From the NCBI GenBank assembly GCA_016927565.1, contig JAFGMK010000018.1, positions 13,119 through 77,118 of the forward strand: DNA of 64,000 bases, written 5' to 3'. This document shows, piece after piece, positions 13,299 through 62,393 of this stretch (position 1 is its first letter; each line of letters starts with the position of its first letter). The translations under genes and the position numbers were made by a program. Below the pieces are notes generated by a model, which saw only the letters and a list, made by a program, of their open reading frames with translations, did no database searches and was not told where the DNA came from. This stretch comes from Minisyncoccota bacterium (lineage in GTDB: Bacteria; Patescibacteriota; Microgenomatia; PFEM01; JAFGMK01).

Positions 13299-14336
13299 CT
13301 ATTCTAAGTATTCTGGAGAGATGGCGGGAATGATGATGGAGAGGATAACGGCTTTTTGGTCGCTGGCAACTCCTTTACCGGAAAAGAGGTAGTGGGGAAT
13401 CAAAATATCTTCTTGAGAGTAGAAATAAACTAGCTGAACTTGATCTAGGTTGGCTGATTTAAGACCGGTGATGTTTAGAGGTATTTCCGAGTAATCATTT
13501 CCTTGACTTTTCGATGAATAATGAAGAAAGGTTATTTGACCTTGCCCTTGGTTAATGAGAGTGATTGCCTGGTCGAGGCTCGTTAAGGGATAGGTTTCTT
13601 GCTTTTCAAACTCTTGGGGTAGAAATTTGAAGACGGTTTTGGAGATTCTATTTTCTGAACCAACCCAGACGGTGAAAGGAAAGGTATTAGTGCCGAGTTG
13701 GAAGATTGGCCAGGAATCAAGTTTCTTTTGATAATTCAGCTTGATAGTGGTGGCTTTTTCAAAATCGGAAGGGAGATATTCGCCGCCACCGGATTTTAAA
13801 TAACTAATGCTTTCCTGGTCAAGCTCGAATTGATCAGGATTAAGTTTGATTTGGCTGGCAAAATTAGAGACGGCTTCTTGAGCTTTGGTTAAGTCTGGTT
13901 TCTTTCCCAGCGAAGGTTCTTGGTTAAAACGGACAAGATTTTGCCTTAGATCGCAATTTAGGCTGTAGTTTTCACTTTGCCAAAACCTAAAAAAATCATC
14001 GCTGACAAGCCGGTTTTCCTGGAGTTTAAACAGGTCGGCAATAGTCTGGCAAAATGAAATCATGTCCGGGTTTTCTGCGGCCTGATAAAGAGCCAGTTTT
14101 TGAGGAAAATCCGGCCGTTTGCCCGAAAAGCGGATATTTTGAATTTGAAATTGGCCTTGAGAATCGTTTTTAACGGTTGGTTTTTTGACCAGGGGCAGGT
14201 TGGGTTGGCTGGTTGGGGAGGGTTTTCGTCCCGGTGTTTGATTAGTCAACCAGGCCAAACCGACAATTAGAACAATTAAGATCATAATCAGCCAAAAAGC
14301 CGGTTTTTTAAAAAGGTTCTTGATTTTATTAATCAT
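13299..14336 (-). CDS. Hypothetical single-pass membrane protein with a large extracytoplasmic domain; last gene of the T4SS-like operon
   Basis: An N-terminal TM helix FWLIMILIVLIVGLAWL is followed by a 300-aa soluble region. A VirB8-like role is speculative. Confidence 0.4.
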   Translation of the reverse strand: MINKIKNLFKKPAFWLIMILIVLIVGLAWLTNQTPGRKPSPTSQPNLPLVKKPTVKNDSQGQFQIQNIRFSGKRPDFPQKLALYQAAENPDMISFCQTIADLFKLQENRLVSDDFFRFWQSENYSLNCDLRQNLVRFNQEPSLGKKPDLTKAQEAVSNFASQIKLNPDQFELDQESISYLKSGGGEYLPSDFEKATTIKLNYQKKLDSWPIFQLGTNTFPFTVWVGSENRISKTVFKFLPQEFEKQETYPLTSLDQAITLINQGQGQITFLHYSSKSQGNDYSEIPLNITGLKSANLDQVQLVYFYSQEDILIPHYLFSGKGVASDQKAVILSIIIPAISPEYLE

Positions 14337-14350
14337 GATTTTATTTTGTC

Positions 14351-17300
14351 CTAAGGACAGCTAGAACTAACATTAATTCGATCCAGATATGGCGGCAGAT
14401 AGACTTTTTCTTCAATTGGTGGCGAAGTGGCCGGAACGTAACTTAGAATGTCAACTCCCAGGCCGGGATTGCCTCTTAATTCATAGTGAAGATGATTGCC
14501 TTCTGAATTCCCGGTGCTGTTTACAAAGCCGATTAACTGACAAAAGCTGACTGAAGTATTGCCGCCGTCATCAATGTCTGAGAATTCGGTGGCAAATTTC
14601 TGTAGGTGGACGTATCGAGTTTCAAAATGGTCACAACCCAGGGACGAACATAGCTTGATCCAGTTACCGCCGGTGCCACCCTTACCGCCGTCGCGGTAAA
14701 AATAGGCGGTGCCATTATGAGTGGCGTAAACTGGGGTGCCTTCTCCGGCGGCAATGTCGATTGAATTTGAATAAGCGCCGTCGGGGTCGTGAGAGCCGCC
14801 AACAGCTCTCGGTCCTTGAGTGATAAAGCCGGAAGTAGGCCAGCCGGTGGGGATCATTTCCGAGGGGTCACCGATCTTGACGCGGGCAGAAGCGCTTTGG
14901 CTTTCGCCGATGATATTTTGTTCCGGATCGTCAGGATCAATTATTACATCGGCGGTGGCAATGACGGTGTCAATCAGCCAGGAGTCATGGATTTGACTGA
15001 TATCGGTAATTTCAACTCCGACTTGACTTTCGATCGCGCTGCGGACTAGGGCAACATCATATTCCAGAACAATTACTTCATCCGGATTTAAGATTAGTGG
15101 AATTAGCTCGGAGTTGCTGCTGTCCCAGAGCCTGATTTGATTGCCGGAGGCGTCTTTCACCACTTGATATTCGCCCTGAACATCCGGATTAAGATTGTGA
15201 ATGACAGTTTCATTGCTGACAGTAATGTTGGTCAGAGCGTTTTCTACGGCATAAATTTCGATTCGGTAATTGATAATTGCCGGCTCCTTGGTTTGAAGAG
15301 GATTAGCTACTTCCCCGGGGACGGCAGTTTTAACCACATCAATGTAGGCTGAGCTGATAATCTCTTCTTCAAAACGACCCTGGGGGGTTTCCTGGGGAGT
15401 GACCATAAAAGCGCCGCCGCTGATTAGTACCACGATAAAAGTGCTTAGAGAAATCAGAATTAAATAAAGAGCAATGATCCGGCGCAGGTTTAGCCGGATT
15501 TGCCATTGCCAGAGCCAAGCTAGAAAAGCAGTGGTGCCGGTGGTGACCAGGGTAGTGGTGGTAGTAGCGAGGACGGCGGTCGTGGCGGCAATGGTTGAAA
15601 GTGATCCGATGATGACTACGCTGCCGATAACCAATCCGGCGCCGATTAATAAGGCGGTTGGTCCCAGGGTGAAAAAGGCGGCCATTAAAAGCGGTCCGGC
15701 TAAACCCAGAATATTAAAAATCTGTTTTAAATTACCCTTAAGGCCGCCTTCTTTTTGGCCTTCACGGAAGTAACGGAAGGTGATTAATCCGCCGAAAATC
15801 TTAAAACCTCTTCTGAGCATGCCGATCGGGCCGGCGGCGATATCTATTAATAATCCCAGTGGTTTGCCGATCACTGGAATTGCCTCAACCAGACTGACGG
15901 CCATATCGTAAAAACCGAAAATTGCCAAAACTTGAGTGACTCCGGTAGGCAGGGCCAGGGCGGCAAGGTTGACAGAGCCTTTAATGCCGAGTTTTTTTGC
16001 CAGCCAGGCGGCTCCTTTGCCGGCCAATTCTGCTGCTTTTTCTTTTACAGCTTTTCTGGCAGCTTTGAGCGATTGCTGAACCCAGGCGTAAGCTTTTTTA
16101 AAAGGCCGGAGGAGGGCCCGGCTGGCCCGGCCGGCGTATTCGCCGACGAATTTGCCGGCTTGGCCGACATATCTGGCGCCGGTAGTAAATAGTTGCCGGC
16201 CTTGGGTTAAAATCCAGGCAAAGGGCCGGCCAATCCCGGAGCGGTTGAGAATAAGAATCAGTTTTTCAAGACCGGCCCCGGCTAACTTGAAGGGGGTGCC
16301 CAGGCCTTTGCCAATTATTTTCAGGGTTTTTCCTAAACCGCTGGTGATTCCCTGCCATATCTTTTTCAGCCTTTCCGGAACCTTTATTTTTTGCTTGATT
16401 TCAGCGAGTCGTAATTTCAGCTGGGGGAGGCCCAATTTTTCCCTGATTTTTTCAAGCCTGCTTTTGGTAAATCCCCGGCGCCGTTCTTTGTCAAAAGCCA
16501 GTCTCAAAGCTTCAGCGATCTTGGGATGCTCTTCTTCAAATTTCAGAAGATTATTCCTGAGATGGCGGTACTGGCCGATAAGCCCCTGATTAACATCGAT
16601 GTTGCCGGGGGCAACATCACGGAGAATCGCTTCCAGCTGGATAATCGTTTCGTCGATGTCTTCCAGCCTGACGCCATTGGCCAGAATCACCAGGGGATGC
16701 TGAGGACCGTATTGGGGGTGTTTTTCCAGGTAAGGGGCGAGTTGTTTTAGAATTTGAGAGCGGACAGGAGTCGGCGATCGGTTGAAGAAAAACTGGAAAA
16801 GGTTAGCCTCTTCTGATACAGGAGCTGGTTCTGCTGATACAGGAGCTGGTTCTGCCGGCGCCGGTGGTTCTTCGGGCCGCGTTGGGGTTGGGGAAGGGCG
16901 TCTTCTTCTGGCAGGCGCCGGAGGAGTTCTTCTCGGAGGAGGTTGATAATGGCCGGTTTCATCTACCGGCAGCTCGTCCAACTTTTTCTGAGTCTCCGGT
17001 GCTAATTCCTGTCCGATTATCTCAGGTTCAATTACGGTTTGCATTTCTGCAACCATTTTCTCAATTTCCCGGTCTTTGTCTGCAATGCTAACCCAATAGG
17101 CCTTAAGTGCTTCTTTCAAGGCTGTTTCGGCTTGTTCTCGAGTGGCGCCGGGGGGGAGATTTTGGCGGATACTTCCTAAAACGGCCTCCTTGATTTTTTG
17201 CCTGGCATATGTTTCAAAAGAATTGTCAAAGCCAGGAATGATTGCTAAAAAGGGATGAAGTTCTCTTTGTCTTTTTTTGGCTTCCTCAATGGCTTCTTGG

Positions 17301-18154
17301 ATTTCAGGCTCATCCTCCAACAGCTCGTCAAGCAGGTCGTTGAAATCGGGGGTGACGGTTACCGGGATTGGCTCATTATCACCGGCGCGGCCGTATTGAG
17401 CAATAGGGGCTTCTTCTTGCTGGGGTGACGGCCGGCTTGGCGGAGACAGAGGCGGGGTGAGGGGATGAGGAACAGTGGCTGCTGGTCTGGTTTTGGGCAG
17501 AGCAGCAGCTCTGGGCGGAGGAGGGTTGGGATTAAAATCTCGGGGAAAGGGTTTGCTTCTGACGGCATGGTCTCTCCGCCCTCCCAGATCAACATTGGCT
17601 AAGATAGTGAGTCGGCCGGGCCGGATTTCGGCGGGATTGCCGCGAGAGTCAGTGATTGGGCCTCCGTTGCTTTCCCGAATTAAAGCAAAAAGATTTTCCG
17701 GTTTTTCTTCAAGCGCCTGGGCCAGTCTTTCGGCTTCTTCTTGACTGGTTATCCAGACTGCCCGCAAAGCGTTGCTTCTGGCCCCACCGGTACCTTCATC
17801 AGGGCCTCTTTGGTCAATGTGATGACCGTGAACGGCTGCTAAAGTAATCACATCATTAGGACTGAATTTGCCTTTTAAATTTCCTTTTACTTTTGGGGGG
17901 ATGGCAGGACTGCTAAGAGGAACCTGAATAACACGGCTGTAGCCTTCCTGAGGAACATCATATCCGGGGAGAGTTAGCCGGACTTCGCTGTCAATAGGCG
18001 TGCTTTGAAGTAAATCGTAAACTTGATTATCGCCCCGGACCTGATAACCTCTGGGAGAATAATTTTCGATTGCCTGGCCTTTGATTGCAAATTTTTCTGC
18101 GTGACCAGTGGTGGATTCTGTATTAATGGCGGCCATTAGAAGTAATGATACCAA
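14351..18154 (-). CDS. Giant 1267-aa membrane protein with a C-terminal M23 (LytM) metallopeptidase domain; candidate T4SS cell-wall hydrolase
   Basis: The C-terminus carries FVNSTGNSEGNHLHYELRG and GGSHDPDGAYSNSIDIAAGEGTPVYA, which are M23 signatures. The central part has a block of 4-5 TM helices, and there are Pro-rich linkers. It sits directly downstream of VirB4. Confidence 0.7.
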   Translation of the reverse strand: MVSLLLMAAINTESTTGHAEKFAIKGQAIENYSPRGYQVRGDNQVYDLLQSTPIDSEVRLTLPGYDVPQEGYSRVIQVPLSSPAIPPKVKGNLKGKFSPNDVITLAAVHGHHIDQRGPDEGTGGARSNALRAVWITSQEEAERLAQALEEKPENLFALIRESNGGPITDSRGNPAEIRPGRLTILANVDLGGRRDHAVRSKPFPRDFNPNPPPPRAAALPKTRPAATVPHPLTPPLSPPSRPSPQQEEAPIAQYGRAGDNEPIPVTVTPDFNDLLDELLEDEPEIQEAIEEAKKRQRELHPFLAIIPGFDNSFETYARQKIKEAVLGSIRQNLPPGATREQAETALKEALKAYWVSIADKDREIEKMVAEMQTVIEPEIIGQELAPETQKKLDELPVDETGHYQPPPRRTPPAPARRRRPSPTPTRPEEPPAPAEPAPVSAEPAPVSEEANLFQFFFNRSPTPVRSQILKQLAPYLEKHPQYGPQHPLVILANGVRLEDIDETIIQLEAILRDVAPGNIDVNQGLIGQYRHLRNNLLKFEEEHPKIAEALRLAFDKERRRGFTKSRLEKIREKLGLPQLKLRLAEIKQKIKVPERLKKIWQGITSGLGKTLKIIGKGLGTPFKLAGAGLEKLILILNRSGIGRPFAWILTQGRQLFTTGARYVGQAGKFVGEYAGRASRALLRPFKKAYAWVQQSLKAARKAVKEKAAELAGKGAAWLAKKLGIKGSVNLAALALPTGVTQVLAIFGFYDMAVSLVEAIPVIGKPLGLLIDIAAGPIGMLRRGFKIFGGLITFRYFREGQKEGGLKGNLKQIFNILGLAGPLLMAAFFTLGPTALLIGAGLVIGSVVIIGSLSTIAATTAVLATTTTTLVTTGTTAFLAWLWQWQIRLNLRRIIALYLILISLSTFIVVLISGGAFMVTPQETPQGRFEEEIISSAYIDVVKTAVPGEVANPLQTKEPAIINYRIEIYAVENALTNITVSNETVIHNLNPDVQGEYQVVKDASGNQIRLWDSSNSELIPLILNPDEVIVLEYDVALVRSAIESQVGVEITDISQIHDSWLIDTVIATADVIIDPDDPEQNIIGESQSASARVKIGDPSEMIPTGWPTSGFITQGPRAVGGSHDPDGAYSNSIDIAAGEGTPVYATHNGTAYFYRDGGKGGTGGNWIKLCSSLGCDHFETRYVHLQKFATEFSDIDDGGNTSVSFCQLIGFVNSTGNSEGNHLHYELRGNPGLGVDILSYVPATSPPIEEKVYLPPYLDRINVSSSCP

Positions 18155-18189
18155 TTTTCGGCTTGGGAGTAAATAGGCGGGGACTCTTT

Positions 18190-20151
18190 TTATTCCCGGA
18201 AATTACCGGTCAGAGAAGCTACTTCGGCTGGTGAAGCTGCGTTTTGGGGAGTGACGGTTTCTATCCGGAAGGCTGATTCATCCGGCGGCAGATTGGGAGT
18301 AAGGGTGATTTTGGCTTGAGCCTTGGCGGCTTCAATTTTTTTTCTTTTCTCCTCAGCCAGGCGGAGGAGTTCTTCCGGATTACTGGTAATTAAGTTGTGC
18401 TCTTCAGGAGAGGCAACGACACGGATAGCCACATGATTAGCTCCGGCAAAGAAAAGGCCCTCGCCGACATCAGCCGCCAAAAGGAGATGTCTTTCTCCTT
18501 CGGAAAGGTAAAAAACCTCAGCTAATTTGTCAATCGCGGCCGGCGATTGCTTCATCAGGATTTGAATGGAGGAATTAGTGACGATTTCCTTACCGTATTC
18601 GGTTGCAAAAAAGTCTTCAACATCCTGGGTGATGGTGGTTAATCCCAGGTAGTATTTCCGGGCTCTTTTGGCAATTGAACGCAGGAAATTAGCCGAATCG
18701 GGATAACGCATCATGTACCAGGCTTCGTCAACGACCATGATTCTTTTTTTCATCTCTTTTCTGACTCTGGTCCAGATATAGTCAAGAATAATAAACATCG
18801 CTACCGGCCGGAGAGTGTCTTCCAGATCTCTCAGGGAAAAAGCGGTGAAGGGATTGCTCAGGTCGACGTTCGAATGTTGATCAAAAATACCCCGGAATGA
18901 GCCTCTGACGAACTTTTCAATCCGGTCGGCTAAAGATCGGGCTTCGGCTTCTTCCATGCCGGTGAGAGCTTTATAGAGATCTTCCATTAGGGGAGGTTCG
19001 TTTTGTTGAGTTGCCGGATCGGGGGTGATGCCTTTCATTTTGTAGGTGAGAACCAGAGCGCGGTCAAGAGTGGCTTCCTCGGAAGGGGTCAGATGGCCCA
19101 TGACTACCTTAAAAAGCGAGTGAAGGGAAAGGATTTTTTGATTCAGCTCGTTTTCGCCTTCAGCATAAACGGCTGAAAGATCGAAGGGGTTAATTTTAGC
19201 TTGAGAGCCGAAGCCGAAACTAATGTATTGACCGTCAAGAGTTTCGCAGAGCGTTTTATATTCTGATTCAGGATCGATCACAATGACTTCTGCCCCGAAC
19301 ATTATCGAGCGGAGCGATTCCAGTTTGACCATGTAAGATTTCCCGGCCCCGCTTTTGGCAAAAACAACCGCATTGGCGTTTTCCATGGTAAAGCGGTCGA
19401 AAATTACCAGAGAGTCATTGTGTTCATTGATGCCGTAAAGAATGCCTTCGTTAGCTGTCAGTTCTGAAGAGGTAAAGGGAAAGGTGGTGGCGAGAGAGGT
19501 GGTGTCCATGTTGCGGCTGATCATCAATTTATCGGTGCAGATGGGGATGGTGGTTTTAAAACCTTCTTCCATTTGAAGGGTGGCGTGTTTGGAAATAATT
19601 AAAAGTGAGCCTAGGGTGGCCTCGATTTGTTTTGAAACCTGATTCAGTTCTTCTAAGGATTCAGCCGGGATGGTGACATATAGGGAAAACTGGAAAAAGC
19701 GCTCGGCGCCTTTGACTAATTCTGCCTGGAGTGACTGGGCGTCTTCCAGTTTTGCCTGAGTGCCGGGGTCGACTATCCGGCCTCTCTCGAGGTCGGTTTT
19801 AATCTCAGCTTCCATTTCGGCAATCTTTCTTCTTAATTTGTCCAGGATTGAACGTCCTTCGACCGGATAAACAAACATCGAAACATCAAGGGAATGGTCA
19901 AAGTTAATCAGAGGGGCCAGCCAGTTGGCGGAAACATAGCGGGGATAGCCGGAGACGAAAAGAGTTCTGAAATAGGTGGTGCCGATTTTGATGTGGTCAA
20001 AATCCACTTCAATGGCTGAGGGGGCGATGATGTCTTGGATGCTGACAATTCCCTGAGACAATTTGTCTTCAACCGAAGCCGCTGATAGCCCCTGATTTTT
20101 AACCGGAGCCGTTTTTTGTTTTTTCTTTTTGAACTTGTCTAAAAAGGTCAT
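18190..20151 (-). CDS. virB4: Type IV secretion ATPase, VirB4/TrbE/TraC family
   Basis: Walker A VVFAKSGAGKSYMV and Walker B IMVVDEAWYMM are present. The 653-aa size fits the family. Confidence 0.8.
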   Translation of the reverse strand: MTFLDKFKKKKQKTAPVKNQGLSAASVEDKLSQGIVSIQDIIAPSAIEVDFDHIKIGTTYFRTLFVSGYPRYVSANWLAPLINFDHSLDVSMFVYPVEGRSILDKLRRKIAEMEAEIKTDLERGRIVDPGTQAKLEDAQSLQAELVKGAERFFQFSLYVTIPAESLEELNQVSKQIEATLGSLLIISKHATLQMEEGFKTTIPICTDKLMISRNMDTTSLATTFPFTSSELTANEGILYGINEHNDSLVIFDRFTMENANAVVFAKSGAGKSYMVKLESLRSIMFGAEVIVIDPESEYKTLCETLDGQYISFGFGSQAKINPFDLSAVYAEGENELNQKILSLHSLFKVVMGHLTPSEEATLDRALVLTYKMKGITPDPATQQNEPPLMEDLYKALTGMEEAEARSLADRIEKFVRGSFRGIFDQHSNVDLSNPFTAFSLRDLEDTLRPVAMFIILDYIWTRVRKEMKKRIMVVDEAWYMMRYPDSANFLRSIAKRARKYYLGLTTITQDVEDFFATEYGKEIVTNSSIQILMKQSPAAIDKLAEVFYLSEGERHLLLAADVGEGLFFAGANHVAIRVVASPEEHNLITSNPEELLRLAEEKRKKIEAAKAQAKITLTPNLPPDESAFRIETVTPQNAASPAEVASLTGNFRE

Positions 20152-20177
20152 GGTTCTTCTTTTTTTATAGGCTGTTT

Positions 20178-21278
20178 CTAAGGAACAGGACTGGTTATTT
20201 CGGGCGGTTTTTCCTCCTGAGGCGCCACTGCTTTGACTAATTTATCGATTTCTGCCTGAGTACTTTCTTCTCCGGTTTCATTAACGGCTTCTTCTGCTCG
20301 GGGAAGAGTGGTGGTAGGAAATGTTTTCGCCGAGACCGGCCGGGAGGGAAGAGTTTGATCTTGAGATGAAGTTTCGATCTGAGGCGGTAGGGAATTTTTA
20401 GTTGAAACCGGTTTGATTGCCGGTGGATTTGGGGCCGAAGAAGAAGCGGGTGCCGGTGTTGGGATTGGCGGCGATGGTGGATTTGGGGCCGGCGGAGCCG
20501 GAGGAAGCGGGGATTCGGGTGTCTGGCCGGATTTTTCTGTCGGTTCGGCGGCGGTTTCAGCCGGAATGACAACCGGAGCCTGAATAAAATTAGCGGCAGG
20601 CTTAACTAAGGGCGTCTCATAATCGGCTGAGGTAGATAAAATCTGCCCGAAGCTGTTGGGATTGTAGATCTCATAAAAAAGCTTGATTAATTCCTGGTTG
20701 TTTAATTGCCTTGATCTTAAACCCAGGCGGTTTAATAGTCTGATGAGATGATCTCTTTTGGGGAATAAGTTGGTTTTGGCTTTGTTTAGGACATAGTCCT
20801 TGGGAAAGGGCAGGCCCCGCTTTTTTTTAAGCTTAGAGCCTAAGTTTTGGCTGATTCCCAGTTCCAAAGATGACATGGGGATAATGATATAAAAACTTTT
20901 TTCCAGGACATTGTTGACCTGGACGGTATTTTGAATAAATTCGTGGTATTTTTGAATTTGAGTCTTAAATTCTTTTTTGACGGTCCTTTTTTCCTGTTCG
21001 GTAATTAATTTCAGGTAGGCGGTGATGTCTTTTCTTTTTGACCGGATTAAAATCTGGATTGAGAAGGTGAGCGAGTTCAGAAGGGCGCCATAAGCATAAA
21101 TGGCGGCATCTTGTTCTTTCTCGGACAAAAGGCCAAAGTTAATCGCAGTGGTGGTAATGATTAAGATGCAGCTGCCGTCCTTGAGAATAACGATGCCTTC
21201 CTTAATGTCTTCAATTTCCAAAAAAGATTGGGTGCTGGCTTTGACTGGGGTGGTGCTGGCAGGTTTTCCTGATTTCAT
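20178..21278 (-). CDS. Hypothetical T4SS-associated protein with a Pro-rich C-terminal half
   Basis: The 366-aa ORF lies between the PrgI-like gene and virB4. A PAPPAPNPPSPPIPTPAP tract is present. Confidence 0.35.
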   Translation of the reverse strand: MKSGKPASTTPVKASTQSFLEIEDIKEGIVILKDGSCILIITTTAINFGLLSEKEQDAAIYAYGALLNSLTFSIQILIRSKRKDITAYLKLITEQEKRTVKKEFKTQIQKYHEFIQNTVQVNNVLEKSFYIIIPMSSLELGISQNLGSKLKKKRGLPFPKDYVLNKAKTNLFPKRDHLIRLLNRLGLRSRQLNNQELIKLFYEIYNPNSFGQILSTSADYETPLVKPAANFIQAPVVIPAETAAEPTEKSGQTPESPLPPAPPAPNPPSPPIPTPAPASSSAPNPPAIKPVSTKNSLPPQIETSSQDQTLPSRPVSAKTFPTTTLPRAEEAVNETGEESTQAEIDKLVKAVAPQEEKPPEITSPVP

Positions 21279-22318: not shown

Positions 22319-22400
22319 GAGTATTTTACTTTAACATAACCGGCTTTAAGGCTCAATAAGATCTCAGGATTATTTAAGGGTAAAACCCGGGGCTGCCGGG

Positions 22401-22985: not shown

Positions 22986-23054
22986 GGCTGGTTTTTTAAG
23001 CTGATTTTATGTTAAAATTGAAACGCTGGTAGATATTTTAAAAAAAGCAAAAAG

Positions 23055-25574: not shown

Positions 25575-25599
25575 GATTAAAAACGTTTGAGGGTATTTT

Positions 25600-25627
25600 G
25601 CCAGGCGGTTACCTGGCCTTTTTTTCT
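25600..25627 (+). terminator. Rho-independent terminator
   Basis: The hairpin gccagg-cggtta-cctggc is followed by cttttttttc. Confidence 0.6.
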
Positions 25628-25752
25628 TTGTTCTTCCGGGGTTAAAGAACGGGTGGTTTCTTGAGCTTCAAGATTTTGTTTTTCTCGCGCCAATTTAGCA
25701 TCAACTACGCCGAAGATAATATTTTTGACAACATTGTCCATTTTTTTTGCTT

Positions 25753-27420
25753 TTAGCCTCGGAAAAGCCCGCCGATTTGCTGGCCGATCCGCTGGGCGGC
25801 TTGAAGTTTTTTAAGTTTTGCAAATTCGGCTTCATAGGTTGATCCTGCAGGAACATTCCTGACTAATTGTTGCTGGATATCAGCGCGGTGGCCGAGGTAG
25901 CCTTGAGCTCCGCTAGAAATTGGACCAACTGCTTCTCCAATCGCCGTGTCACGGCCGCCCAGACCGGCTTTAAGCATTGATTGAGCCATTTCGGCAATTT
26001 TCGGGGCATAGAAAAACATCCCCAAGCCTAAAATTTGCAATGCGTGTTCTGGAGAAAACTCACCCATTAAAGGCAGGCGGATTTCATGAGCCCGGGCTTC
26101 GAGTCCGATCGGAATTTCGCCTCTGGCACCGCCCATAAAGATTGATGACAGGACAAAAAGAGTTCCGGTGACCGGAAAAGTCACCGCCTGAGCCATTACA
26201 TTTTTGAGCCAGCCGTTAAAGGCTTTAGAGCCCGGGAAAACATCCATGAAGATCCACAGCGGGGCAACAATGGTGTAAAGAACGAGGAAGATAAAAGCTT
26301 TAATGATCATCCAGGTGGTTTTAATTGCTGTCCAAAGCAAAATAGCGGCGAGAATAAACCAGCCGATTACCATTAAACCCTGCTCGGTTAAACCGGCCGG
26401 ACCGCCGAAAACCGCCTGGGCGGCATTAGCCAGACCAACAAAGGAAGCGATAAAGCTGTTCGGCAGGATCCTCCACATTGAGTAGCCAAAAGCACTGCGT
26501 TCCATCAGCCCCCGCCGGAAGCCGTCATAAGCCAGAGTATTGCGGAAATCGCCGACACTGGAAACGATTTCGTAGGCAAAGAGAGTTGAAAACCAGATCA
26601 GATCCATAATCAGACCGACAATAGCGTAAGAAAAAGTGACCAGAAGGAGAGTGATAATCATTTTAGGCAGGGCCTGCTGGATAGTGACTACGGTACGGGG
26701 GTCAAGTTTGGTTCTAAACATTATCATAAAACCAATAATGACGGCGGCGACGGCGAAAAGAGCATAGGCGGCATTTCTGAACACTGTCCACCAGGGGATT
26801 AGTCCGGCCATGGAGTTATAGCCGAAACCCTGAGCCTGAGCCGGTTGTGATAAGCCGACTTTTTGACCCAGCCAGCTGAAATACCGGAAGCCGGAAACCG
26901 GCATTTTTTGAGAAATAAGCCTGGTCATTGTCAGGGTTCTGGTCAGGATGCCGGATTCCAAACCGGCGATTGGCAGGGGCTCTTTATTTTCGACAAACCA
27001 AAGAGCGGCGTCGGCGCAATAGGGAACAACATTTAAACAATCGCCGAAATCAGCAATGTCACCGCTGAAAACTTTATGGCTGCAGAGGACGCCCCAATAA
27101 AGACAGTTAATCAGTTCTATCCGGGTGAGGTAGTAAATCGGAATTCCCAAAAAAAGAGCTTTAAAGGTTTCGGAAACAAAGCTTTCCAAATTCATTTCCG
27201 GCGATTCAAGAGCGGGGTGGAAAACATCGGCGTAGTATTCTAACAAACCGGTTTCAGTATCGCCGATTACGCCGAGGAAATTAATGGCTTTGAAAGGGGT
27301 GGAGTCGTAAGCAAGTGCCGGTTTGGCAGATAGAGGCAATAAAATGACCAGCAGAAGAAGCGCCAGTCCTCTTTTCAGCTTTGCCAATTTTTTCAGGATC
27401 ATATAGTTTAAGTTTAACAA
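25753..27420 (-). CDS. VirB6/TrbL-like polytopic T4SS channel protein
   Basis: A signal peptide is followed by an extracytoplasmic domain of about 200 aa and then 5-6 TM helices. It lies in the T4SS cluster. Confidence 0.5.
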   Translation of the reverse strand: MLNLNYMILKKLAKLKRGLALLLLVILLPLSAKPALAYDSTPFKAINFLGVIGDTETGLLEYYADVFHPALESPEMNLESFVSETFKALFLGIPIYYLTRIELINCLYWGVLCSHKVFSGDIADFGDCLNVVPYCADAALWFVENKEPLPIAGLESGILTRTLTMTRLISQKMPVSGFRYFSWLGQKVGLSQPAQAQGFGYNSMAGLIPWWTVFRNAAYALFAVAAVIIGFMIMFRTKLDPRTVVTIQQALPKMIITLLLVTFSYAIVGLIMDLIWFSTLFAYEIVSSVGDFRNTLAYDGFRRGLMERSAFGYSMWRILPNSFIASFVGLANAAQAVFGGPAGLTEQGLMVIGWFILAAILLWTAIKTTWMIIKAFIFLVLYTIVAPLWIFMDVFPGSKAFNGWLKNVMAQAVTFPVTGTLFVLSSIFMGGARGEIPIGLEARAHEIRLPLMGEFSPEHALQILGLGMFFYAPKIAEMAQSMLKAGLGGRDTAIGEAVGPISSGAQGYLGHRADIQQQLVRNVPAGSTYEAEFAKLKKLQAAQRIGQQIGGLFRG

Positions 27421-27443
27421 CTTCTAAATTAAAAAGCAAGAGT

Positions 27444-30400
27444 TCAAAACTTAACCATTTCTTTGGGTACCATTTCATTCATGAAGTATTTCCGGAAAAC
27501 ATCAACCGCGCCGATATAGGGATAGTAAAATCTGGCCTGAGTATCGTTGATGCTTTCCCAGCCTCTAAAATCCCGGCCGAGAGAGTCTTTAGTCGGCGGT
27601 TCCCCTCCGGGGGCATTTTCGCCGCAGCCGTCGCTGTGGCAAATTCTTTCGCTGTCTTCGCAATCCGGATCATTGAGGCATTCGTCGCAGTTGCAATTGG
27701 CTTCGCAGTTGGGGGCCGGGTTGCCGCCGCATGGAGTGCCGCAGCTGTCTGTTCCCGCGCAGTAGTCAATGCAGCGATTTTCTTCGCAGACACATTCAGT
27801 GCCGGCGCATTCCCGCCGCACAATGAAAAAACCTGCCGTTCCGCCGCAATTAAAAGAATCATAAACATCGCTGGCCATGCACATCGGGTTGTTGTCCCAA
27901 CTGAAATTTCCGAGAGGACAGAAGTTAAGCTCGTTTATATCCGGTTCGAGGCCGCATTCCCGATCCTCAAAAGCTTCGCAACAGCCCCAGTGGGTTTGGG
28001 GGTTTTCTTCTCTTTCGAGATTATTGTCGTATTCGTAACTGGCGGGGCCGTAGCCTGGCAGTTCATACCAGAGCAACCGGCCCCCGGCGACTTCTTTGAT
28101 TAAACCGATGATGTTCTCAGTATAGAATTGAGGTAACATCAGCCGGAAAAGGCCGGCGGGGCCAATCGTTCTTTTGGCAATTTCCCTCAGATAGGGGATT
28201 TTGGTGGTGATCCAGGCATGAGGCCATTCAGGAGTTTCCCAGGTGTTGCGGGAAAAGACGCTGGTGTGGCGTTCGGGGAAGACGCAGGAAGGTTCAGAAT
28301 CACAGCCCCAGTCGCCGGCACCAGCTTCTACTTCATCATACCATTCGTTGTAAAATTCAATGCCCCGATCAGTGTACCCCGGCGCATCTCCGGCGATAAC
28401 ATCATTGGCCAGGGCATTGCCGGGTCCGCCGCGTACTACGCTGTTGACATTGCAATTTAAAAATTGAGAAAAAGGATTGTCCAGGGCCAGGGTGGTCATT
28501 GAGCCGTCGTTTCCCCAATACTCTTCCGAGTCGCGGTTTTGATAAACGAAGGGAGTCAGGGGCATTGCCGCCCATTCCGAAAGCTCTTTAGATTCCGGAA
28601 TATGGGGAATATAGATCATCTGAACATAGTGGAGCTCATAAAGAGGCTCGCCGCTGATTTCAGAAGCGACTCTTTCCGGCGGATTGCCCAGCCAGAGCTC
28701 AAGCCAGTAGTAGCCGTCGTGGTTGTTAACGGCGTCGTAAAGATAATCAATCGGAAGGGAAGAGGGAACGGTAATTTCCCGGAGGCGAGAGGTGTAATTT
28801 TCGCCGGGAATGTCGATATTAGCCGGGTCGGGCCAGATGCTGGTTACTCCCAGATCGACAAAAGCGGGGGCGTCCTCTTTTGAAGCCAGAGGAAAATAGT
28901 GGAGCCAGGCGGTCTTTTGGTCACCGGTCAGCGGCAGGGAAATGCCGCTGGGCAAGTCGGACAAAGTGATATCTTTGTAGAGGTGATAATCGTGAACCGG
29001 ATCATTGGAAATCAGCCGGCTATAGTTATTCTTTAGAATCTGGTCCTGCCAGCCCGGTTCGCAGACCCGGTCCGAGCTGTTTCCCATTCGGCATCGGATA
29101 AACTGCCTCCTATAGGCATTATCCCGCAGGATGGGATCGGGAAACAGTTTTCTGATCGGTCCGCTTTCATTTTGAATCCGGCGGTATTCTTTTTCCTGGT
29201 CTTCGAAATCAGCGTTCCGGTTATCCTTAACTTCTTCACCGTCAAAATAAACCGTTCCCCGTAAGAAATCGCTTAGGAAAAAGGACATTCTTTCCGTATA
29301 ATCTGCAAATTGGCGGGAGGCAGTTTCGCTGTTCCCCAAAAATGGAATTTGGGTGGCGCGGACGCTGTCGATCCATTGAGTTTTGATCTCGCCGAGCAAT
29401 TCGAAGTAGTGAGTTAAACCGTTTGGCTCATCCGGAAGGGGGAACCAATCCAGATTATCAGTGATCTCAGGTGCCGGGTTGCAGTAAACGGTAATTTGAT
29501 TATCATTGTCAAGTTTAGTCAGGTCGTAGCAATTGGCCGCACCCCGGCGGGCATCGGCATCGCCCGGAAAAGGACGCCAGGGGGATCGGTCGTTATAGAG
29601 ATCGCCCAAGCTTTTTCTGCAAGGAATTCCTTCGCCATAGACCGGCGGTCGGGCCCATTCGGTATTGCGTTTCGGGGGTAATTCAATTGGTCCCATTGAG
29701 CCTCTCTCGCTTTCGCTAACCAGTTCACAACCATCGGTTAATTCTTCGTTGTTGAAGGTGTAGAAGCGAATGTCGCTCAAATTTGGAGCAGAGGCCGACC
29801 AGCCGAAGGTGGCGCCGGTACACATGTCTAAGGGAAGAGGGGTGACGGCAATAAAACCGTCTGCTTGGAAATATTTGCTTCCGTGTTGGATCAGATCAAC
29901 ATAGAAACTGTAATAATTGCTTGGGGGGAGAGAGGGATTGGGGCCGTATTCGGTAAGGATTCTTGGTTTATTAGTGTTGATGCCAAAACTATTCATCACT
30001 CCGATTTCCCAACGCCAAGAACGCCTCCCAAAAGGGTCCTCGGCACAATCAGGTCCGCAATTGGGGTTGTCATAAGCGACAAAGGCAAGAACTTGCAGGC
30101 TGTTTAAAACCGCTAAGCCGTCAGGAGCGTCAGCAGCATACTGCCAGAATCGATCAGCACTGCCGCAGTGGGTGCAGAGGGGAGCATTAGCGGCCCGGAA
30201 GTTGCCTTGACGGGTAGTGAATTCTTTTAAAAGCCTGATGTAGTCGGCGGTAACTTTTCGGAAACTAGCTTCATCTTTGTCAATATGGGTTCCTCCCCAT
30301 TCGTCATAAACATTAGGTTCATTGAGGACGCTGATAATTGGGATCCAACCGTCAGGAAAACTGACATTAGCCTCAGCAATACCGGCAGAAAGGCCTGTAG

Positions 30401-30758
30401 CGGCAGCAACAGCCTCTTCTTGAGTCATAATTGCCCAGTGTCCGCTTTGAGTGCGGGTGACGAGCCTGATGATAGGTAAAAAATGGAGGCTGTGAAGATC
30501 GTGGATTAAGCTGGCAACATGATCCGGGTCAGCCGCGCGATCGACACCGACCATAAGAGTGACCGGGACCCAATCGGCTCCCAAGTTGTTGGATCGTTCT
30601 CGGACAGTTTGAAAAAATCCCCGATCGCTATTATTAATCAGGTGAGTTCCAAGCATTTGCCGGGATTCGCCATAAACGTGATTGGGGAAAACCCCGCTGA
30701 GAATTAAGCCGGAAAGAACTAAAAAGCTCCTCACAAGCCAAGTTTTGATGAGTTTCAT
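27444..30758 (-). CDS. Secreted roughly 1100-aa protein with a GH clan-A (GH5-like) TIM-barrel glycoside hydrolase signature and a Cys-rich C-terminal region
   Basis: The likely start is ATG 30758 (MKLIKTWLVRSFLVLSGLILSGV, a signal peptide). IISVLNEPNV is an NEP acid/base motif, and RILTEYGPN is a TE(Y)G nucleophile motif. The C-terminal roughly 150 aa contain about 30 Cys in CxxC, CxC and CNC patterns. Confidence 0.45.
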   Translation of the reverse strand: MKLIKTWLVRSFLVLSGLILSGVFPNHVYGESRQMLGTHLINNSDRGFFQTVRERSNNLGADWVPVTLMVGVDRAADPDHVASLIHDLHSLHFLPIIRLVTRTQSGHWAIMTQEEAVAAATGLSAGIAEANVSFPDGWIPIISVLNEPNVYDEWGGTHIDKDEASFRKVTADYIRLLKEFTTRQGNFRAANAPLCTHCGSADRFWQYAADAPDGLAVLNSLQVLAFVAYDNPNCGPDCAEDPFGRRSWRWEIGVMNSFGINTNKPRILTEYGPNPSLPPSNYYSFYVDLIQHGSKYFQADGFIAVTPLPLDMCTGATFGWSASAPNLSDIRFYTFNNEELTDGCELVSESERGSMGPIELPPKRNTEWARPPVYGEGIPCRKSLGDLYNDRSPWRPFPGDADARRGAANCYDLTKLDNDNQITVYCNPAPEITDNLDWFPLPDEPNGLTHYFELLGEIKTQWIDSVRATQIPFLGNSETASRQFADYTERMSFFLSDFLRGTVYFDGEEVKDNRNADFEDQEKEYRRIQNESGPIRKLFPDPILRDNAYRRQFIRCRMGNSSDRVCEPGWQDQILKNNYSRLISNDPVHDYHLYKDITLSDLPSGISLPLTGDQKTAWLHYFPLASKEDAPAFVDLGVTSIWPDPANIDIPGENYTSRLREITVPSSLPIDYLYDAVNNHDGYYWLELWLGNPPERVASEISGEPLYELHYVQMIYIPHIPESKELSEWAAMPLTPFVYQNRDSEEYWGNDGSMTTLALDNPFSQFLNCNVNSVVRGGPGNALANDVIAGDAPGYTDRGIEFYNEWYDEVEAGAGDWGCDSEPSCVFPERHTSVFSRNTWETPEWPHAWITTKIPYLREIAKRTIGPAGLFRLMLPQFYTENIIGLIKEVAGGRLLWYELPGYGPASYEYDNNLEREENPQTHWGCCEAFEDRECGLEPDINELNFCPLGNFSWDNNPMCMASDVYDSFNCGGTAGFFIVRRECAGTECVCEENRCIDYCAGTDSCGTPCGGNPAPNCEANCNCDECLNDPDCEDSERICHSDGCGENAPGGEPPTKDSLGRDFRGWESINDTQARFYYPYIGAVDVFRKYFMNEMVPKEMVKF

Positions 30759-30954
30759 CTTGCCTCTAATTTTACAATTTTTCTGCCCGGGAAACAAGAC
30801 TTGATTGGCTGGCGCGGCAATTTGGAGAATGAACGATTGCAGGTCGATCCGGTGATTTAGGATTAAAGGATGAAAACGATTCGAGATTGGAAAAGCGCTT
30901 CCGAGATAAATCAATAAAAAAGGAAATGGGCAATTATTGGATCAGAGAGTCTAA

Positions 30955-31365
30955 TTAGTTAGTAGGTTCGGGAAGGGTAAAGATGGTGACATTGAGGCCG
31001 GTGATCAGCTTGATGGCCTGTAAAATGAGCCAAGCGGCCAGAATAACGGCTAAGCCAATCACTGCGTAAGTTAGGGTTCCGCTCGCTTTTTGAGCCTGTT
31101 TGGGGTCTTCGCCGGCAGTTAAATACTGAAAACCGCCGATTACAAACATTACTAAAACCCCCATTCCGGCCAGGGTGGTGACAACCATCACTACCCGTCG
31201 GAAAACAAACTCCAAGTCATAAATCTGAGCCGGTTGATCAGTTTGGGACCAGCCGGAGACCGGAGAGAGTTCCAAAAACAAGGTTAAAACAAAAAAAGAC
31301 CCCCAGAAGAATAATTGATTTAAAGTTTTTTTTAATTTCATTAGTTTTTTAAACCGACTCTCCAA
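30955..31365 (-). CDS. T4SS pilin-like protein (CPR T4SS_pilin/VirB2-like), paralogue 6
   Basis: A signal/TM segment is followed by FQYLTAGEDPKQAQKASG and a second TM helix (two hydrophobic helices with a divergent GEDP form of the GGDK motif). Confidence 0.6.
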   Translation of the reverse strand: MESRFKKLMKLKKTLNQLFFWGSFFVLTLFLELSPVSGWSQTDQPAQIYDLEFVFRRVVMVVTTLAGMGVLVMFVIGGFQYLTAGEDPKQAQKASGTLTYAVIGLAVILAAWLILQAIKLITGLNVTIFTLPEPTN

Positions 31366-31366
31366 G

Positions 31367-31407
31367 TTATCTCCCGTTCTTTCCGCTGGGGGGAGAACGG
31401 GAGATAA
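31367..31407 (-). terminator. Intergenic stem-loop with a 14-bp perfect stem between pilin paralogues 5 and 6; candidate attenuator or terminator
   Basis: gttatctcccgttct-(13 nt)-agaacgggagataat. A hairpin after the first pilin gene is common in pilin operons. The downstream U-tract is weak. Confidence 0.35.
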
Positions 31408-31422
31408 TCTTGGATTTGCCGC

Positions 31423-31839
31423 TTAGCTGGCAACACTCAGGTCGCTCAGGTTAAGCTGAAGCAGACTGACACCAAAGAACATCTGAATCAATTGGATAAT
31501 TGCCCAAGAACCAAAGACAATTAAAAGACCAACCAGGGCGGCAGTGATGGTGTTACGGGCGGCTTCGGTTTTGCCCTTGTCGCCACCAGAGGTGATCCAC
31601 TGGATACCGCCGTAGATCAAAAAGCCAAAAGCGATCATAGCGGCAATGACCAGTGCCAGAACAATCAAACTCCTGATCATTCGGGGAAGGCTGATGTTGC
31701 CTAAACTGGCGAATTGGTCACTTGGTGAAATGTTAAACGTCAAGTCATCGGCCAATACAGGGCTAGCGGCCGTAATCAACGGCAGAGCTGCCAAAGCCAG
31801 AACCCCGGCTGTTTTAATCAGTTTTTTCATATTTTTCAC
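31423..31839 (-). CDS. T4SS pilin-like protein, paralogue 5
   Basis: A signal peptide is followed by IQWITSGGDKGKTEAARNTITAALVGLLIVF. Confidence 0.65.
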   Translation of the reverse strand: MKNMKKLIKTAGVLALAALPLITAASPVLADDLTFNISPSDQFASLGNISLPRMIRSLIVLALVIAAMIAFGFLIYGGIQWITSGGDKGKTEAARNTITAALVGLLIVFGSWAIIQLIQMFFGVSLLQLNLSDLSVAS

Positions 31840-31941
31840 CCCCCTTCAAATTCTCAAAAAAAGACTTTATTATTTAATTTTTAAAAAAAAAGATTGCTAA
31901 GTCAACCCGGTCAGCCCGATTTCATCTAGAAAACCGGTTTT

Positions 31942-32301
31942 TTAGGAACTGACCGTCGGTAGTTTAATCTGAATTAGATTAATTCCAAATATTGCTCCGA
32001 TTGCTTTTATTATAGCAAAAAGGGAGAAGAGAATAAAGAGTCCGAGAAGCGCCTGGGCAATCTTGTCTTTGGCCTGCGCCAGCAGGGCTTTGTCACCGCC
32101 GGCGCTCATCCAGTGATAAGTACCCATTACCAGATAGAGGAAAGCGGATAAAAAGCCGATAATTAATAGGGTTGTAACGGTAATTGAAATAATTTTTCCT
32201 AAAATTTCAACCCCGTCACCGCTGCCCAGAACCGGCAGGGCTTCGTTGACAATTCCTTGAGCTAAAACAGCTGAACTAATCAAAAAGGTTAAGAGCCCCA
32301 T
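31942..32301 (-). CDS. T4SS pilin-like protein, paralogue 4
   Basis: YHWMSAGGDKALLAQAKDKIAQALLGLFILF flanked by two TM helices. Confidence 0.65.
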   Translation of the reverse strand: MGLLTFLISSAVLAQGIVNEALPVLGSGDGVEILGKIISITVTTLLIIGFLSAFLYLVMGTYHWMSAGGDKALLAQAKDKIAQALLGLFILFSLFAIIKAIGAIFGINLIQIKLPTVSS

Positions 32302-32657
32302 ATGTCTCCCAATAGGCTGCCGGGCTGAAGGATGGAAAAGCCCAAAACAAAGCCTAAGACTGAAATAATGGCGTAGGCGGCCACCAGGACAACCAGGCCG
32401 ATAACGGCTTGAACAATTTTATCTCGGGCTTTCTGGAGTTTATTTTTATCGCCGCCGGCTTCGATCCATTGGAAAGCGGCAGTGATAAAAATAAATAGGA
32501 AATAGATGCCTCCGCCAATTGTCATAATCCCGATTATTACTGAGATTACTTTTTCCAAAAGGGAAAGGGGTTCGGCCGGGTTAATGTTGGTATACATCGG
32601 GCCGACGCCGACAAAGTTGCCCAGACTGACCGAACTGGCATGCACTTTTCCGATCAT
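32289..32657 (-). CDS. T4SS pilin-like protein, paralogue 3
   Basis: FQWIEAGGDKNKLQKARDKIVQAVIGLVVLV flanked by two TM helices. Confidence 0.65.
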   Translation of the reverse strand: MIGKVHASSVSLGNFVGVGPMYTNINPAEPLSLLEKVISVIIGIMTIGGGIYFLFIFITAAFQWIEAGGDKNKLQKARDKIVQAVIGLVVLVAAYAIISVLGFVLGFSILQPGSLLGDIWGS

Positions 32658-32681
32658 ATTTTTTAAAGAAATTAATTTTGA

Positions 32682-33056
32682 TTAGTTAGGTGTATAAATT
32701 TTCGGATTGATAATCGCGGTCGGATCATTAAAGATAAGCCAGCCCAAGATAGCCGCCAGAGCCAGGGAACCGGCAACTACCGCTACTCCTAAAAGTGATT
32801 GCCAAATTTTGTTCCAGGCCTGGACAACTTTGTCCATATTGCCGTCGGCATTAAGAAAGCCGTAGCCGGCAGTGATAACATTGAAAAGAGCCCAGATACC
32901 GCTGAAGACAATGATGGTTCTTAAAAGGTTGTTAGCCAGGATAATAAGACCCTGGCCTTCAGTGCTGGGGTAAGAATCGGGGCTGATTGTTGCCCAGGGA
33001 TCGCTGATAGAACCGAAAACAGTCAGCATTCTAAAAAATAGGATTAAGAATATCAA
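32682..33056 (-). CDS. T4SS pilin-like protein, paralogue 2 (divergent motif)
   Basis: Two TM helices flank NADGNMDKVVQAWNKIWQSLLG. Confidence 0.5.
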   Translation of the reverse strand: MIFLILFFRMLTVFGSISDPWATISPDSYPSTEGQGLIILANNLLRTIIVFSGIWALFNVITAGYGFLNADGNMDKVVQAWNKIWQSLLGVAVVAGSLALAAILGWLIFNDPTAIINPKIYTPN

Positions 33057-33357
33057 TGCCGGTAATGGCGCCGATAATCTGAATTATCCAATAAGAACTA
33101 ATAATAATCAAAAAACCTACGATGGCAACGGTAACCATTCCTTTATTTTTGGCAAAACCTTCTTTTTCACCTTTGCCTGCGTTCATGATAATCCCAAACC
33201 CGCCAGCGATCAAGAGGAAGAAAAAGATAACCCCGGCGAGAATATAAATGTTGGGCAGCATTACTTGAATTAGGTGACCGAAGGAAGTAAAAACCGGCGG
33301 ATTAAGGTCCGGTTCAAAGATATCGACGCCGCCGCCGGCGAAAACAGGTTTAATCAT
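33031..33357 (-). CDS. T4SS pilin-like protein, paralogue 1 (divergent motif)
   Basis: Two TM helices flank NAGKGEKEGFAKNKGMVTVAIVGFLII. Confidence 0.5.
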   Translation of the reverse strand: MIKPVFAGGGVDIFEPDLNPPVFTSFGHLIQVMLPNIYILAGVIFFFLLIAGGFGIIMNAGKGEKEGFAKNKGMVTVAIVGFLIIISSYWIIQIIGAITGIDILNPIF

Positions 33358-44920: not shown

Positions 44921-44955
44921 TTTCAGGGTCTTGATTTGGTAGAATGCTTCTCATT

Positions 44956-45343: not shown

Positions 45344-45351
45344 AAGAAAAA

Positions 45352-45379
45352 GCCCGGTCTTAGGCCGGGATTTTTTTTA
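45352..45379 (+). terminator. Rho-independent terminator after tmRNA
   Basis: The hairpin cccgg-tcttagg-ccggg is followed by a T8 run. Confidence 0.6.
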
Positions 45380-45394
45380 TGCTAAGCTTGATTA

Positions 45395-62357: not shown

Positions 62358-62393
62358 AAAATTAAAGAAAATTAAAAGAGAATTTAGAAAATT

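Follow-up and report, generated by a model that had tools for sequence, protein, structure and literature searches.

A gene cluster in the 64-kb stretch of DNA analysed here (the window; 64,000 nucleotides of contig JAFGMK010000018.1, from an ultrasmall Microgenomates bacterium in the CPR, or candidate phyla radiation) is a real type IV secretion system (T4SS) or pilus gene set lying beside the replication origin. Its most probable identity, to which we give a probability of about 0.78, is that of a chromosomal, vertically inherited patescibacterial T4SS, i.e. a derivative of the conjugation systems of mating-pair formation (MPF) type FATA that has gained an array of VirB2-like pilins. An initial annotation of this DNA had already described a CPR/Gram-positive-style T4SS with a pilin array; every open reading frame (ORF) that it named is present where it was placed (Table 1), and its identification of the system, next to the replication origin, is correct and agrees with the published picture of Patescibacteria T4SS (PMC10633639, PMC12102498). 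Both that finding and its interpretation are in print, systems of this type having been published between 2023 and 2025, and the window is a good, clean and complete Microgenomates example by oriC, not a discovery and not a new kind of system. What the present analysis adds is small: a VirB6 candidate, a PepSY-like partner of the wall hydrolase, a variable slot for large ORFs, the head-on orientation of the operon and a coupling-protein gene in Gottesmanbacteria-type loci.

The reference point is the T4SS of Southlakia epibionticum (SEML1_0006-0019), which resembles Gram-positive conjugative systems, has no recognisable coupling protein or relaxase and is, pilin array included, essential for epibiotic growth; protein export or another role was suggested for it (Wang et al. 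2023, PMC10633639). A phylum-wide survey then placed the VirB4 proteins of Patescibacteria in a distinct clade sister to MPF-FATA, found TrsD, PrgI/VirB3, VirB6 and VirB2-like proteins to be widespread, with TrsD-like proteins the most abundant T4SS component, described arrays in which 2-11 pilin genes are about 25% identical, and reported T4SS near dnaA/dnaN in Microgenomatia and Paceibacteria, with relaxases rare (Quinonero-Coronel et al. 2025, PMC12102498). A 2025 review repeats this picture and offers the speculation that a pilus acts as a conduit in host exchange (PMC12857230). Unlike that of the cultured Southlakia, the window's locus is a Microgenomates one known from its genes alone. 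To our knowledge, no T4SS other than that of Patescibacteria is known to be essential for the growth of its owner.

The core of the cluster consists of the putative motor gene and the two genes upstream of it. The VirB4 assignment is, by its profile matches, unambiguous: the protein matches Pfam P-loop_TraG (2.9e-29) and AAA_10, the NCBIfam model of CD1110-family VirB4-like ATPases (NF045971; 399.6 bits against a cutoff of 325 bits) and the C-terminal domain of VirB4 in PDB entry 4ag5 (4.2e-49), and its Walker A (GAGKS) and Walker B (VVDEAW) motifs, read from the translation, are intact. This HMM (hidden Markov model) evidence bears out the earlier call of a VirB4 ATPase. Its apparent relationship to the MPF-FATA VirB4 proteins is judged from profile scores and identity; proteins of the window also match the VirB4 and pilin models of Mycoplasma integrated conjugative elements (ICE) and the TrsD and PrgI models (NCBIfam/Pfam). 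The NF045971 match spans profile positions 178-733 of 752, so that the first ~177 positions are absent, and the 366-residue protein encoded next to VirB4 appears to supply that part. Residues ~12-210 of the latter resemble the VirB4/TraC N-terminal domain, with matches to positions 101-236 of the VirB4 model NF045975 (1.6e-8), to positions 11-122 of NF045971 (1e-3) and to the TrsD model NF041427 (4.9e-5). The protein had been taken for a Pro-rich unknown; its C-terminal ~150 residues are indeed Pro-rich and of low complexity, but it can be re-identified from the NCBIfam matches as TrsD-like, probably a split-off VirB4 N-terminal domain, and a TrsD homologue beside virB4 is what a Patescibacteria-clade T4SS would be expected to carry. 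A homologue that is 56% identical (in locus L085, see below) has a precomputed TraC-like match (PF26593). Among 56 syntenic members of each family, the number checked for both this protein and its PrgI-like neighbour, none of the TrsD-like proteins matches in the Pfam copy used, a PDB profile search with the TrsD-like family gave no match, and a profile-profile comparison of this family with the VirB4 family of the locus returned a probability of 0.5%, a null result that is expected because the window's VirB4 is without that domain.

In the third core protein, a PrgI domain with a hydrophobic hairpin at the N-terminus is joined by a Pro/Lys-rich linker to a CarboxypepD_reg-like beta-sandwich at the C-terminus. 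Taken singly, its match to Pfam PrgI (PF12666; 8.8e-6) is borderline, its 26.6 bits falling just short of the gathering threshold (27 bits), and CarboxypepD_reg is matched at 9.7e-5. Taken as a family, 55/56 members match PF12666 at E<=1e-3 and 44/56 match CarboxypepD_reg, so that the PrgI/VirB3-like label proposed earlier, which is also the one a Patescibacteria-clade T4SS would call for, is confirmed.

dnaA (10394-11752) and dnaN (12082-13221) are separated by a 330-bp AT-rich spacer that is likely to be oriC: it holds four DnaA-box-like 9-mers (11791-12034), and the cumulative GC skew, negative before ~11.5 kb and positive after, has its minimum at ~11.4-11.8 kb. On the minus strand, rnpA and yidC occupy 8.6-7.5 kb of the window. 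The cluster begins 78 bp from the end of dnaN, ~1.3 kb from the likely oriC, and the Pfam matches of dnaA and dnaN, the skew and the DnaA-box-like 9-mers together back the earlier statement that it abuts dnaN and the origin. Synteny was compared across 80 loci (L001-L080) picked by VirB4 similarity, most of them from patescibacterial metagenome-assembled genomes (MAGs), and across three further ones (L083, L084 and L085), which are the readable contexts of relatives of an 839-residue protein of the window and lie outside the set of 80. The core order by dnaN/dnaA is kept in dozens of related genomes: the TrsD-like gene is directly upstream of virB4 in 76/80 loci and the PrgI-like gene upstream of it in 74/80, the three are contiguous in 74-76 of the 80, and about 60 have dnaA/dnaN no more than 10 kb away. 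L085 mirrors the entire layout of the window, flanking housekeeping genes included, in the order rnpA, dnaA, dnaN, hydrolase, VirB4, TrsD-like, PrgI, 839-residue homologue, VirB6-like gene, secreted Cys-rich protein, seven pilins, polyprenyl synthase, ECF (extracytoplasmic function) sigma factor and UppS. Many records among L001-L080, despite their patescibacterial synteny, bear titles that name 'uncultured Gammaproteobacteria', 'Pseudomonadales', 'Bathyarchaeia' or 'Clostridia', and look like cases of mislabelled MAG taxonomy.

This conservation bears on the suggestion that the cluster is the decaying remnant of an integrated conjugative element, without current function. A GC content of 46-52%, above the 40-44% of the flanks, and the missing conjugation genes would be in keeping with such a history. 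However, all genes are intact long ORFs, the ATPase motifs of VirB4 included, their order by dnaN is kept across genomes whose VirB4 proteins are just 63-81% identical to that of the window (the range over the 80 loci), and the T4SS family is essential in Southlakia (PMC10633639), all of which makes a functionless remnant extremely improbable. A further trait of the conserved arrangement is its orientation: in 57/61 loci with dnaA, the PrgI-TrsD-VirB4 operon is transcribed towards dnaA/dnaN and therefore head-on to the forks leaving oriC. Head-on transcription is unusual for a presumably important operon close to the origin.

The pilins set this system apart from MPF-FATA systems in general. 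Three members of the tandem array (the first, second and fourth in Table 1) match PF18895 T4SS_pilin above its gathering threshold (2e-12, 5.6e-8 and 5.2e-6, respectively), the third matches it weakly (4.5e-3), and the fifth and sixth have no Pfam match; these last two share the same two-helix (helix-loop-helix) architecture in the alignment, and iterative searches started from them converge with those from pilin 1 on the same 25 matches. The members are 17-27% identical to the first of the array, and the array also gives a match to the Mbov_0395 pilin-like model NF045849 (4.4e-7). The six tandem paralogues described earlier can thus be upheld, three by the profile threshold, one by a weak match and two by architecture and iterative searches, and they form a divergent VirB2-like array of the kind seen in Patescibacteria-clade T4SS.

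The candidate for a membrane platform is a 555-residue polytopic protein, identical (100%) to JW991_03595, a 'hypothetical protein' from a MAG named 'Candidatus Pacebacteria bacterium'. It consists of a signal peptide or first transmembrane (TM) segment, a helical ectodomain and a bundle of TM helices, and it has no match in Pfam, NCBIfam or PDB sequences. Its AlphaFold model (pLDDT, the predicted local distance difference test score, 76.9; 101 sequences in the alignment) finds its best matches in TrwI/VirB6 and DotA, with chains of the R388 T4SS stalk complex (7o3v_F being TrwI/VirB6) at Foldseek ranks 1-6 and 8-10. The earlier VirB6-like label thus lacks the HMM support hoped for and gains support of another sort, from predicted structure, and the best reading of the protein, with moderate support, is that of a VirB6/DotA-like channel candidate. 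By HMM survey, VirB6 is scarce in Microgenomatia (PMC12102498); the family of the 555-residue protein, with 103 'hypothetical' homologues, is likely to be the missing VirB6 of this group.

Downstream of virB4 lies the gene for a 1267-residue protein with a ~700-residue Pro-rich/coiled N-terminal part devoid of TM segments, a TM block at residues ~728-911, then an ectodomain and, at the C-terminus, an M23 peptidase domain, the last matching Pfam Peptidase_M23 above the gathering threshold (1.6e-13, residues 1129-1229) and M23 domains in the PDB (4.7e-11), as the initial annotation had it. In the domain (residues ~1130-1145) the HLH motif is intact, the canonical His of the zinc-ligand motif HxxxD, four residues before the Asp, is a Ser, and an 'SH' 8-11 residues before the Asp is conserved both in the window and in the homologues of other loci. 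In 37-42 loci the interval from virB4 to dnaN contains an M23-bearing ORF, of which the M23 part alone is conserved, and in L085 a hydrolase with a weak CHAP match takes its place. These features fit a candidate modular cell-wall hydrolase in the role of VirB1/PrgK. Always directly downstream of the hydrolase gene is that of a 345-residue bitopic protein, identical (100%) to JW991_03555, again a 'hypothetical protein', for which a TM helix is predicted at the N-terminus, followed by a linker rich in Pro and an alpha+beta ectodomain of tandem PepSY/YycI-like type; a single-pass ectodomain protein had been proposed here, and the prediction is in line with it. The structure model is built on a shallow alignment because few homologues were retrieved (the protein itself only from a large database, and five sequences with a profile). 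A bitopic NTF2-like VirB8 fold, as in VirB8/PrgL/TcpC, was looked for in this protein, and no clear one was found.

Is the machine encoded by these genes conjugative? Within the window there is neither a VirD4/TcpA-type coupling protein nor a MOB relaxase in a Pfam scan of nearly all ORFs of at least 100 residues (the exceptions being short ORFs nested in larger genes, mostly on the opposite strand), and a profile of the coupling proteins of sister loci, run against the six-frame translation, yields P-loop noise only, so that the absence of both genes from the 64 kb, asserted earlier, holds. Nor does either gene turn up in the ~4 kb read beyond the right edge (L081), which contain restriction-modification genes only; at the left, the contig of the end gene stops at the window edge. 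As in other Patescibacteria-clade T4SS, no relaxase is nearby and the site is chromosomal, near dnaA/dnaN. In 19/80 loci, by contrast, prgI has as its immediate upstream neighbour, in divergent orientation, a VirD4/TrwB-like gene for a ~730-residue protein that exceeds the gathering thresholds of TrwB_AAD_bind, T4SS-DNA_transf and TraG-D_C alike (e.g. L039:5581-7758 on the minus strand, L042, L049, L050 and L055; these are Gottesmanbacteria-type loci), and the window has no counterpart of it beside prgI. Across Patescibacteria, the survey counts 5,713 VirD4-type coupling proteins, spread over 2,918 genomes, of which only 148 are near virB4 (PMC12102498). Because 19 of the 80 sister loci do have such a gene and most coupling proteins are encoded far from virB4, its absence from 64 kb says little about the genome as a whole. 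The earlier argument from missing VirD4 and relaxase to a non-conjugative function therefore agrees with the literature in its conclusion and is weaker than stated in its reasoning, the window being a part of the genome; the literature arrives there chiefly through the rarity of relaxases in the phylum, the survey having found them in only 103 Patescibacteria genomes (PMC12102498). A functional conjugative or mobilising T4SS that exports DNA to other cells with the help of a coupling protein and a relaxase encoded elsewhere would have in its favour the sister genes and distant coupling proteins just described, as well as the descent of the machinery from conjugation systems evident in the NCBIfam matches. 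It would have to be squared with that rarity of relaxases, with the lack of both genes in the 64 kb and the ~4 kb to the right, and with a locus fixed by oriC across lineages and not carried on a mobile element. Moreover, in the survey's account of the Southlakia work, a distant homologue of the coupling protein is not essential, whereas the T4SS genes are (PMC12102498, citing PMC10633639). We consider such a conjugative system very unlikely.

The comparison with known systems leads back to a Patescibacteria-clade T4SS. With that clade the window shares VirB4, TrsD, PrgI/VirB3, a candidate VirB6-like protein, a hydrolase downstream of virB4, divergent VirB2-like pilins, a cluster free of relaxase and coupling protein, and a chromosomal site near dnaA/dnaN as in Microgenomatia; it differs in a VirB6-like protein that escapes the HMMs of the survey (PMC12102498), and its lineage-restricted extras are the PepSY-like partner, a soluble protein of 839 residues and a secreted one of 1156 residues that is rich in Cys. 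MPF-FATA systems (CD1110 of C. difficile CTn2, Prg of pCF10, Trs of pGO1, Mycoplasma ICE) resemble it in the best VirB4 model (CD1110), in the PrgI and TrsD homologues, in a large membrane-anchored wall hydrolase (cf. PrgK/TraG) and in the lack of outer-membrane core components. They have, however, a coupling protein, a relaxase and oriT, generally without VirB2 pilins, whereas the window has 6+2 pilins and neither coupling protein nor relaxase, and a VirB4 without the N-terminal ~177 profile positions that the TrsD-like gene apparently supplies. R388 Trw and Agrobacterium VirB (MPF-T) have in common with it VirB2-type pilins with two hydrophobic helices, VirB3 and VirB4 partners and a VirB6-like protein whose model is nearest to TrwI; unlike them, the window belongs to a monoderm envelope, shows a VirB6 likeness that is structural only, and has no detected VirB5, VirB7, VirB9, VirB10 or VirB11. 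Finally, Bordetella Ptl, Brucella VirB and Helicobacter ComB also have no coupling protein at the locus and provide a precedent for protein export or DNA import via VirB4, with or without VirB11, although they are diderm MPF-T systems with full outer-membrane complexes and non-homologous substrates, and nothing points to the Sec-dependent two-step route of Ptl in the window's T4SS.

Could the machine then import DNA, like Helicobacter ComB or Ced of Sulfolobales, with host or environmental DNA as a source of nucleotides? A locus without coupling protein and relaxase would suit this function, import of DNA or macromolecules is among the hypotheses of the survey (PMC12102498), VirB4 is weakly similar to the model of the DNA-import ATPase CedB (5.3e-13, far under cutoff), and a ComFC-like gene (45395-46090), with a double zinc ribbon and a phosphoribosyltransferase domain, is encoded in the window. 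The CedB match, however, reflects generic similarity within the VirB4 superfamily, and the cluster yielded no component recognisable as DNA-binding or as a nuclease. In Southlakia, the one experimental system, competence depends on ComEC and type IV pili: transformation needs ComEC and a comEC deletion is viable, whereas the T4SS is essential, so that the essential role of the T4SS is not ComEC-linked DNA uptake (PMC10633639, PMC12857230). Uptake of DNA, one of the functions favoured by the initial annotation, was supported by no test and appears unlikely, whereas attachment to a host, its other proposal, or exchange with a host is plausible. The ComFC-like gene is grouped with smpB and tmRNA (44956-45343) at 44429-46090, at a distance of 12 kb from the cluster; for the class ABY1, T4SS loci with competence genes close by have been reported (PMC12102498).

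How might a patescibacterial T4SS composed in this way operate? A VirB4 hexamer, as the sole motor encoded at the locus, would dock at the membrane via the PrgI/VirB3-like protein together with the TrsD-like N-domain, the product of a separate gene, with the VirB6-like protein forming the membrane platform. Pilins inserted by Sec would be pulled from the membrane by VirB4 and polymerised on this platform, as proposed for VirB4, VirB6 and VirB2 of R388 (PMC9259494). The M23 hydrolase would open the cell wall for the growing structure, possibly under the control of its PepSY-like neighbour, and the resulting pilus or conduit would serve contact-dependent exchange with a host cell, i.e. protein export or import of host molecules and not relaxase-driven conjugation. 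Several points weigh against this reading of the locus. The genome may have a coupling-protein gene at some other site, as sister loci have one beside prgI; the NCBIfam matches of the TrsD-like protein are all under their curated cutoffs; no convincing VirB8-like scaffold was found in the cluster; and the 839- and 1156-residue proteins are without an assigned role. Pilus formation, substrate and direction are, as for any Microgenomates T4SS, all inferred.

Table 1. Coordinates of the cluster and of other features of the window, in window positions.
Feature	Position	Strand	Basis or context
dnaA, likely oriC spacer and dnaN	10394..13221	+	Convergent with T4SS operon; Pfam DnaA and beta clamp
Bitopic protein, 345 aa	13299..14336	-	Predicted PepSY/YycI-like fold
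Membrane protein with C-terminal M23 peptidase, 1267 aa	14351..18154	-	Pfam, PDB, TM prediction
VirB4-type ATPase, 653 aa	18190..20151	-	Pfam, NCBIfam and PDB matches
TrsD-like protein, 366 aa	20178..21278	-	Partial VirB4/TrsD matches in NCBIfam
PrgI/VirB3-like membrane protein, 347 aa	21275..22318	-	Pfam PrgI and CarboxypepD_reg
DOT1-like/class I methyltransferase, 194 aa	22401..22985	+	Pfam DOT1 7.4e-8, Methyltransf_31 2.2e-5
Soluble protein, 839 aa	23055..25574	+	No TM segment, no P-loop; convergent with VirB6-like gene
Basic ORF, 54 aa	25577..25741	-	Immediately downstream of VirB6-like gene
Polytopic membrane protein (VirB6-like candidate), 555 aa (549 aa in the NCBI call)	25753..27420	-	Predicted structure
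Large, plausibly secreted protein, 1156 aa as listed	27444..30914	-	N-terminal hydrophobic stretch, Cys-rich C-terminus
Six tandem VirB2-like pilin paralogues	30955..33357	-	PF18895, alignment and iterative searches
Pilin array members, first to sixth	30955-31365, 31423-31839, 31942-32301, 32289-32657, 32682-33056, 33031-33357	-	
Hairpin, 19-bp perfect	31366..31408	-	Between stop of pilin 2 and TTG listed as pilin 1 start
Two further pilin-domain proteins, 205 and 252 aa	38222-38839, 38861-39619	-	PF18895 2.6e-8, 3.1e-4
Integrated element at tRNA-Asn (57952-58027)	57952-64000 and L081		Large serine recombinase 57998-59497

Two plus-strand genes inside the cluster had been passed over in the initial annotation, and one of them, encoding the 839-residue protein, marks a slot of variable content. 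This protein has no match in Pfam, NCBIfam or the PDB and only six relatives among 1.84 billion representative proteins. In all three readable contexts of these relatives (L083, L084 and L085) the gene is convergent with the VirB6-like gene, with an ORF of 49-52 residues in between; the short ORF holds the position of the window's 54-residue ORF, itself omitted before, and shows no clear sequence similarity to it, so that this ORF is conserved in position only. The 839-residue family is absent from the 80 VirB4-selected loci, in which unrelated large ORFs of 650-1400 residues fill the slot (e.g. L001, L002 and L037). The slot ORFs are mostly soluble and belong to many mutually unrelated families, with many singletons in BLAST clustering. 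The idea of a single divergent family was rejected, as no pair among 11 families and singletons reached 20% probability in hhalign; together with the BLAST singletons this means that a common origin of the slot ORFs is not shown. Rejected as well was a divergent coupling protein, as the 839-residue protein has no P-loop and no Pfam match and stays below 20% in hhalign against the family of the sister loci. What might such proteins be for? The slot may hold cargo or specificity factors: its proteins, here the 839-residue family, could be substrates or substrate-recognition factors of the patescibacterial T4SS that diversify with host range, a rather unlikely proposal that would, if true, explain how a machine without a coupling protein chooses its cargo.

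The other overlooked plus-strand gene encodes the methyltransferase, which has an N-terminal TM helix and is divergent from prgI and upstream of the 839-residue gene. Only L001 and L010 have homologues at the corresponding place, and its membership in the system is uncertain. Between the VirB6-like gene and the pilins, the 1156-residue protein probably starts at Met53 (30758), which is followed by a signal peptide in the translation, and it is plausibly secreted. It had been described as a GH-A-like hydrolase. By eye, NEP- and TEYG-like motifs can be made out, which is not a test of GH-A, but there is no Pfam match even at E<=10, no NCBIfam match at E<=0.1 and no match in PDB sequences, and the GH-A label was set aside as unsupported. 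Among the loci, L001 alone has a homologue (30%), and the same slot in L085 carries an unrelated secreted Cys-rich protein of 837 residues.

Within the pilin array, the hairpin was picked up in a terminator-like scan, with a predicted RNA fold of -37.7 kcal/mol (z -7.6); it covers a GGGAG motif of pilin 1 and the TTG listed as the start of this gene. Such a structure could be a terminator, a stabiliser or a translational block, and the true start of pilin 1 may be a downstream ATG. The two further pilin-domain proteins, omitted from the initial annotation, lie 5 kb beyond the span that it had flagged, next to a SpoIID-like lytic protein (39890-41671). Each has a signal peptide and a Cys-rich N-terminal ectodomain and can be aligned with the six pilins; they may be minor or tip pilins.

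Towards the right end of the window, an integrated element occupies the tRNA-Asn gene. It carries phage O-like and DnaC/IstB-like replication genes, HTH (helix-turn-helix) genes and an N6/N4 DNA methylase (62394-63944), and contains no relaxase or coupling protein in the part comprising 57952-64000 and L081. GC content falls to 34-36% in the element, and a ResIII-type endonuclease follows beyond the window.

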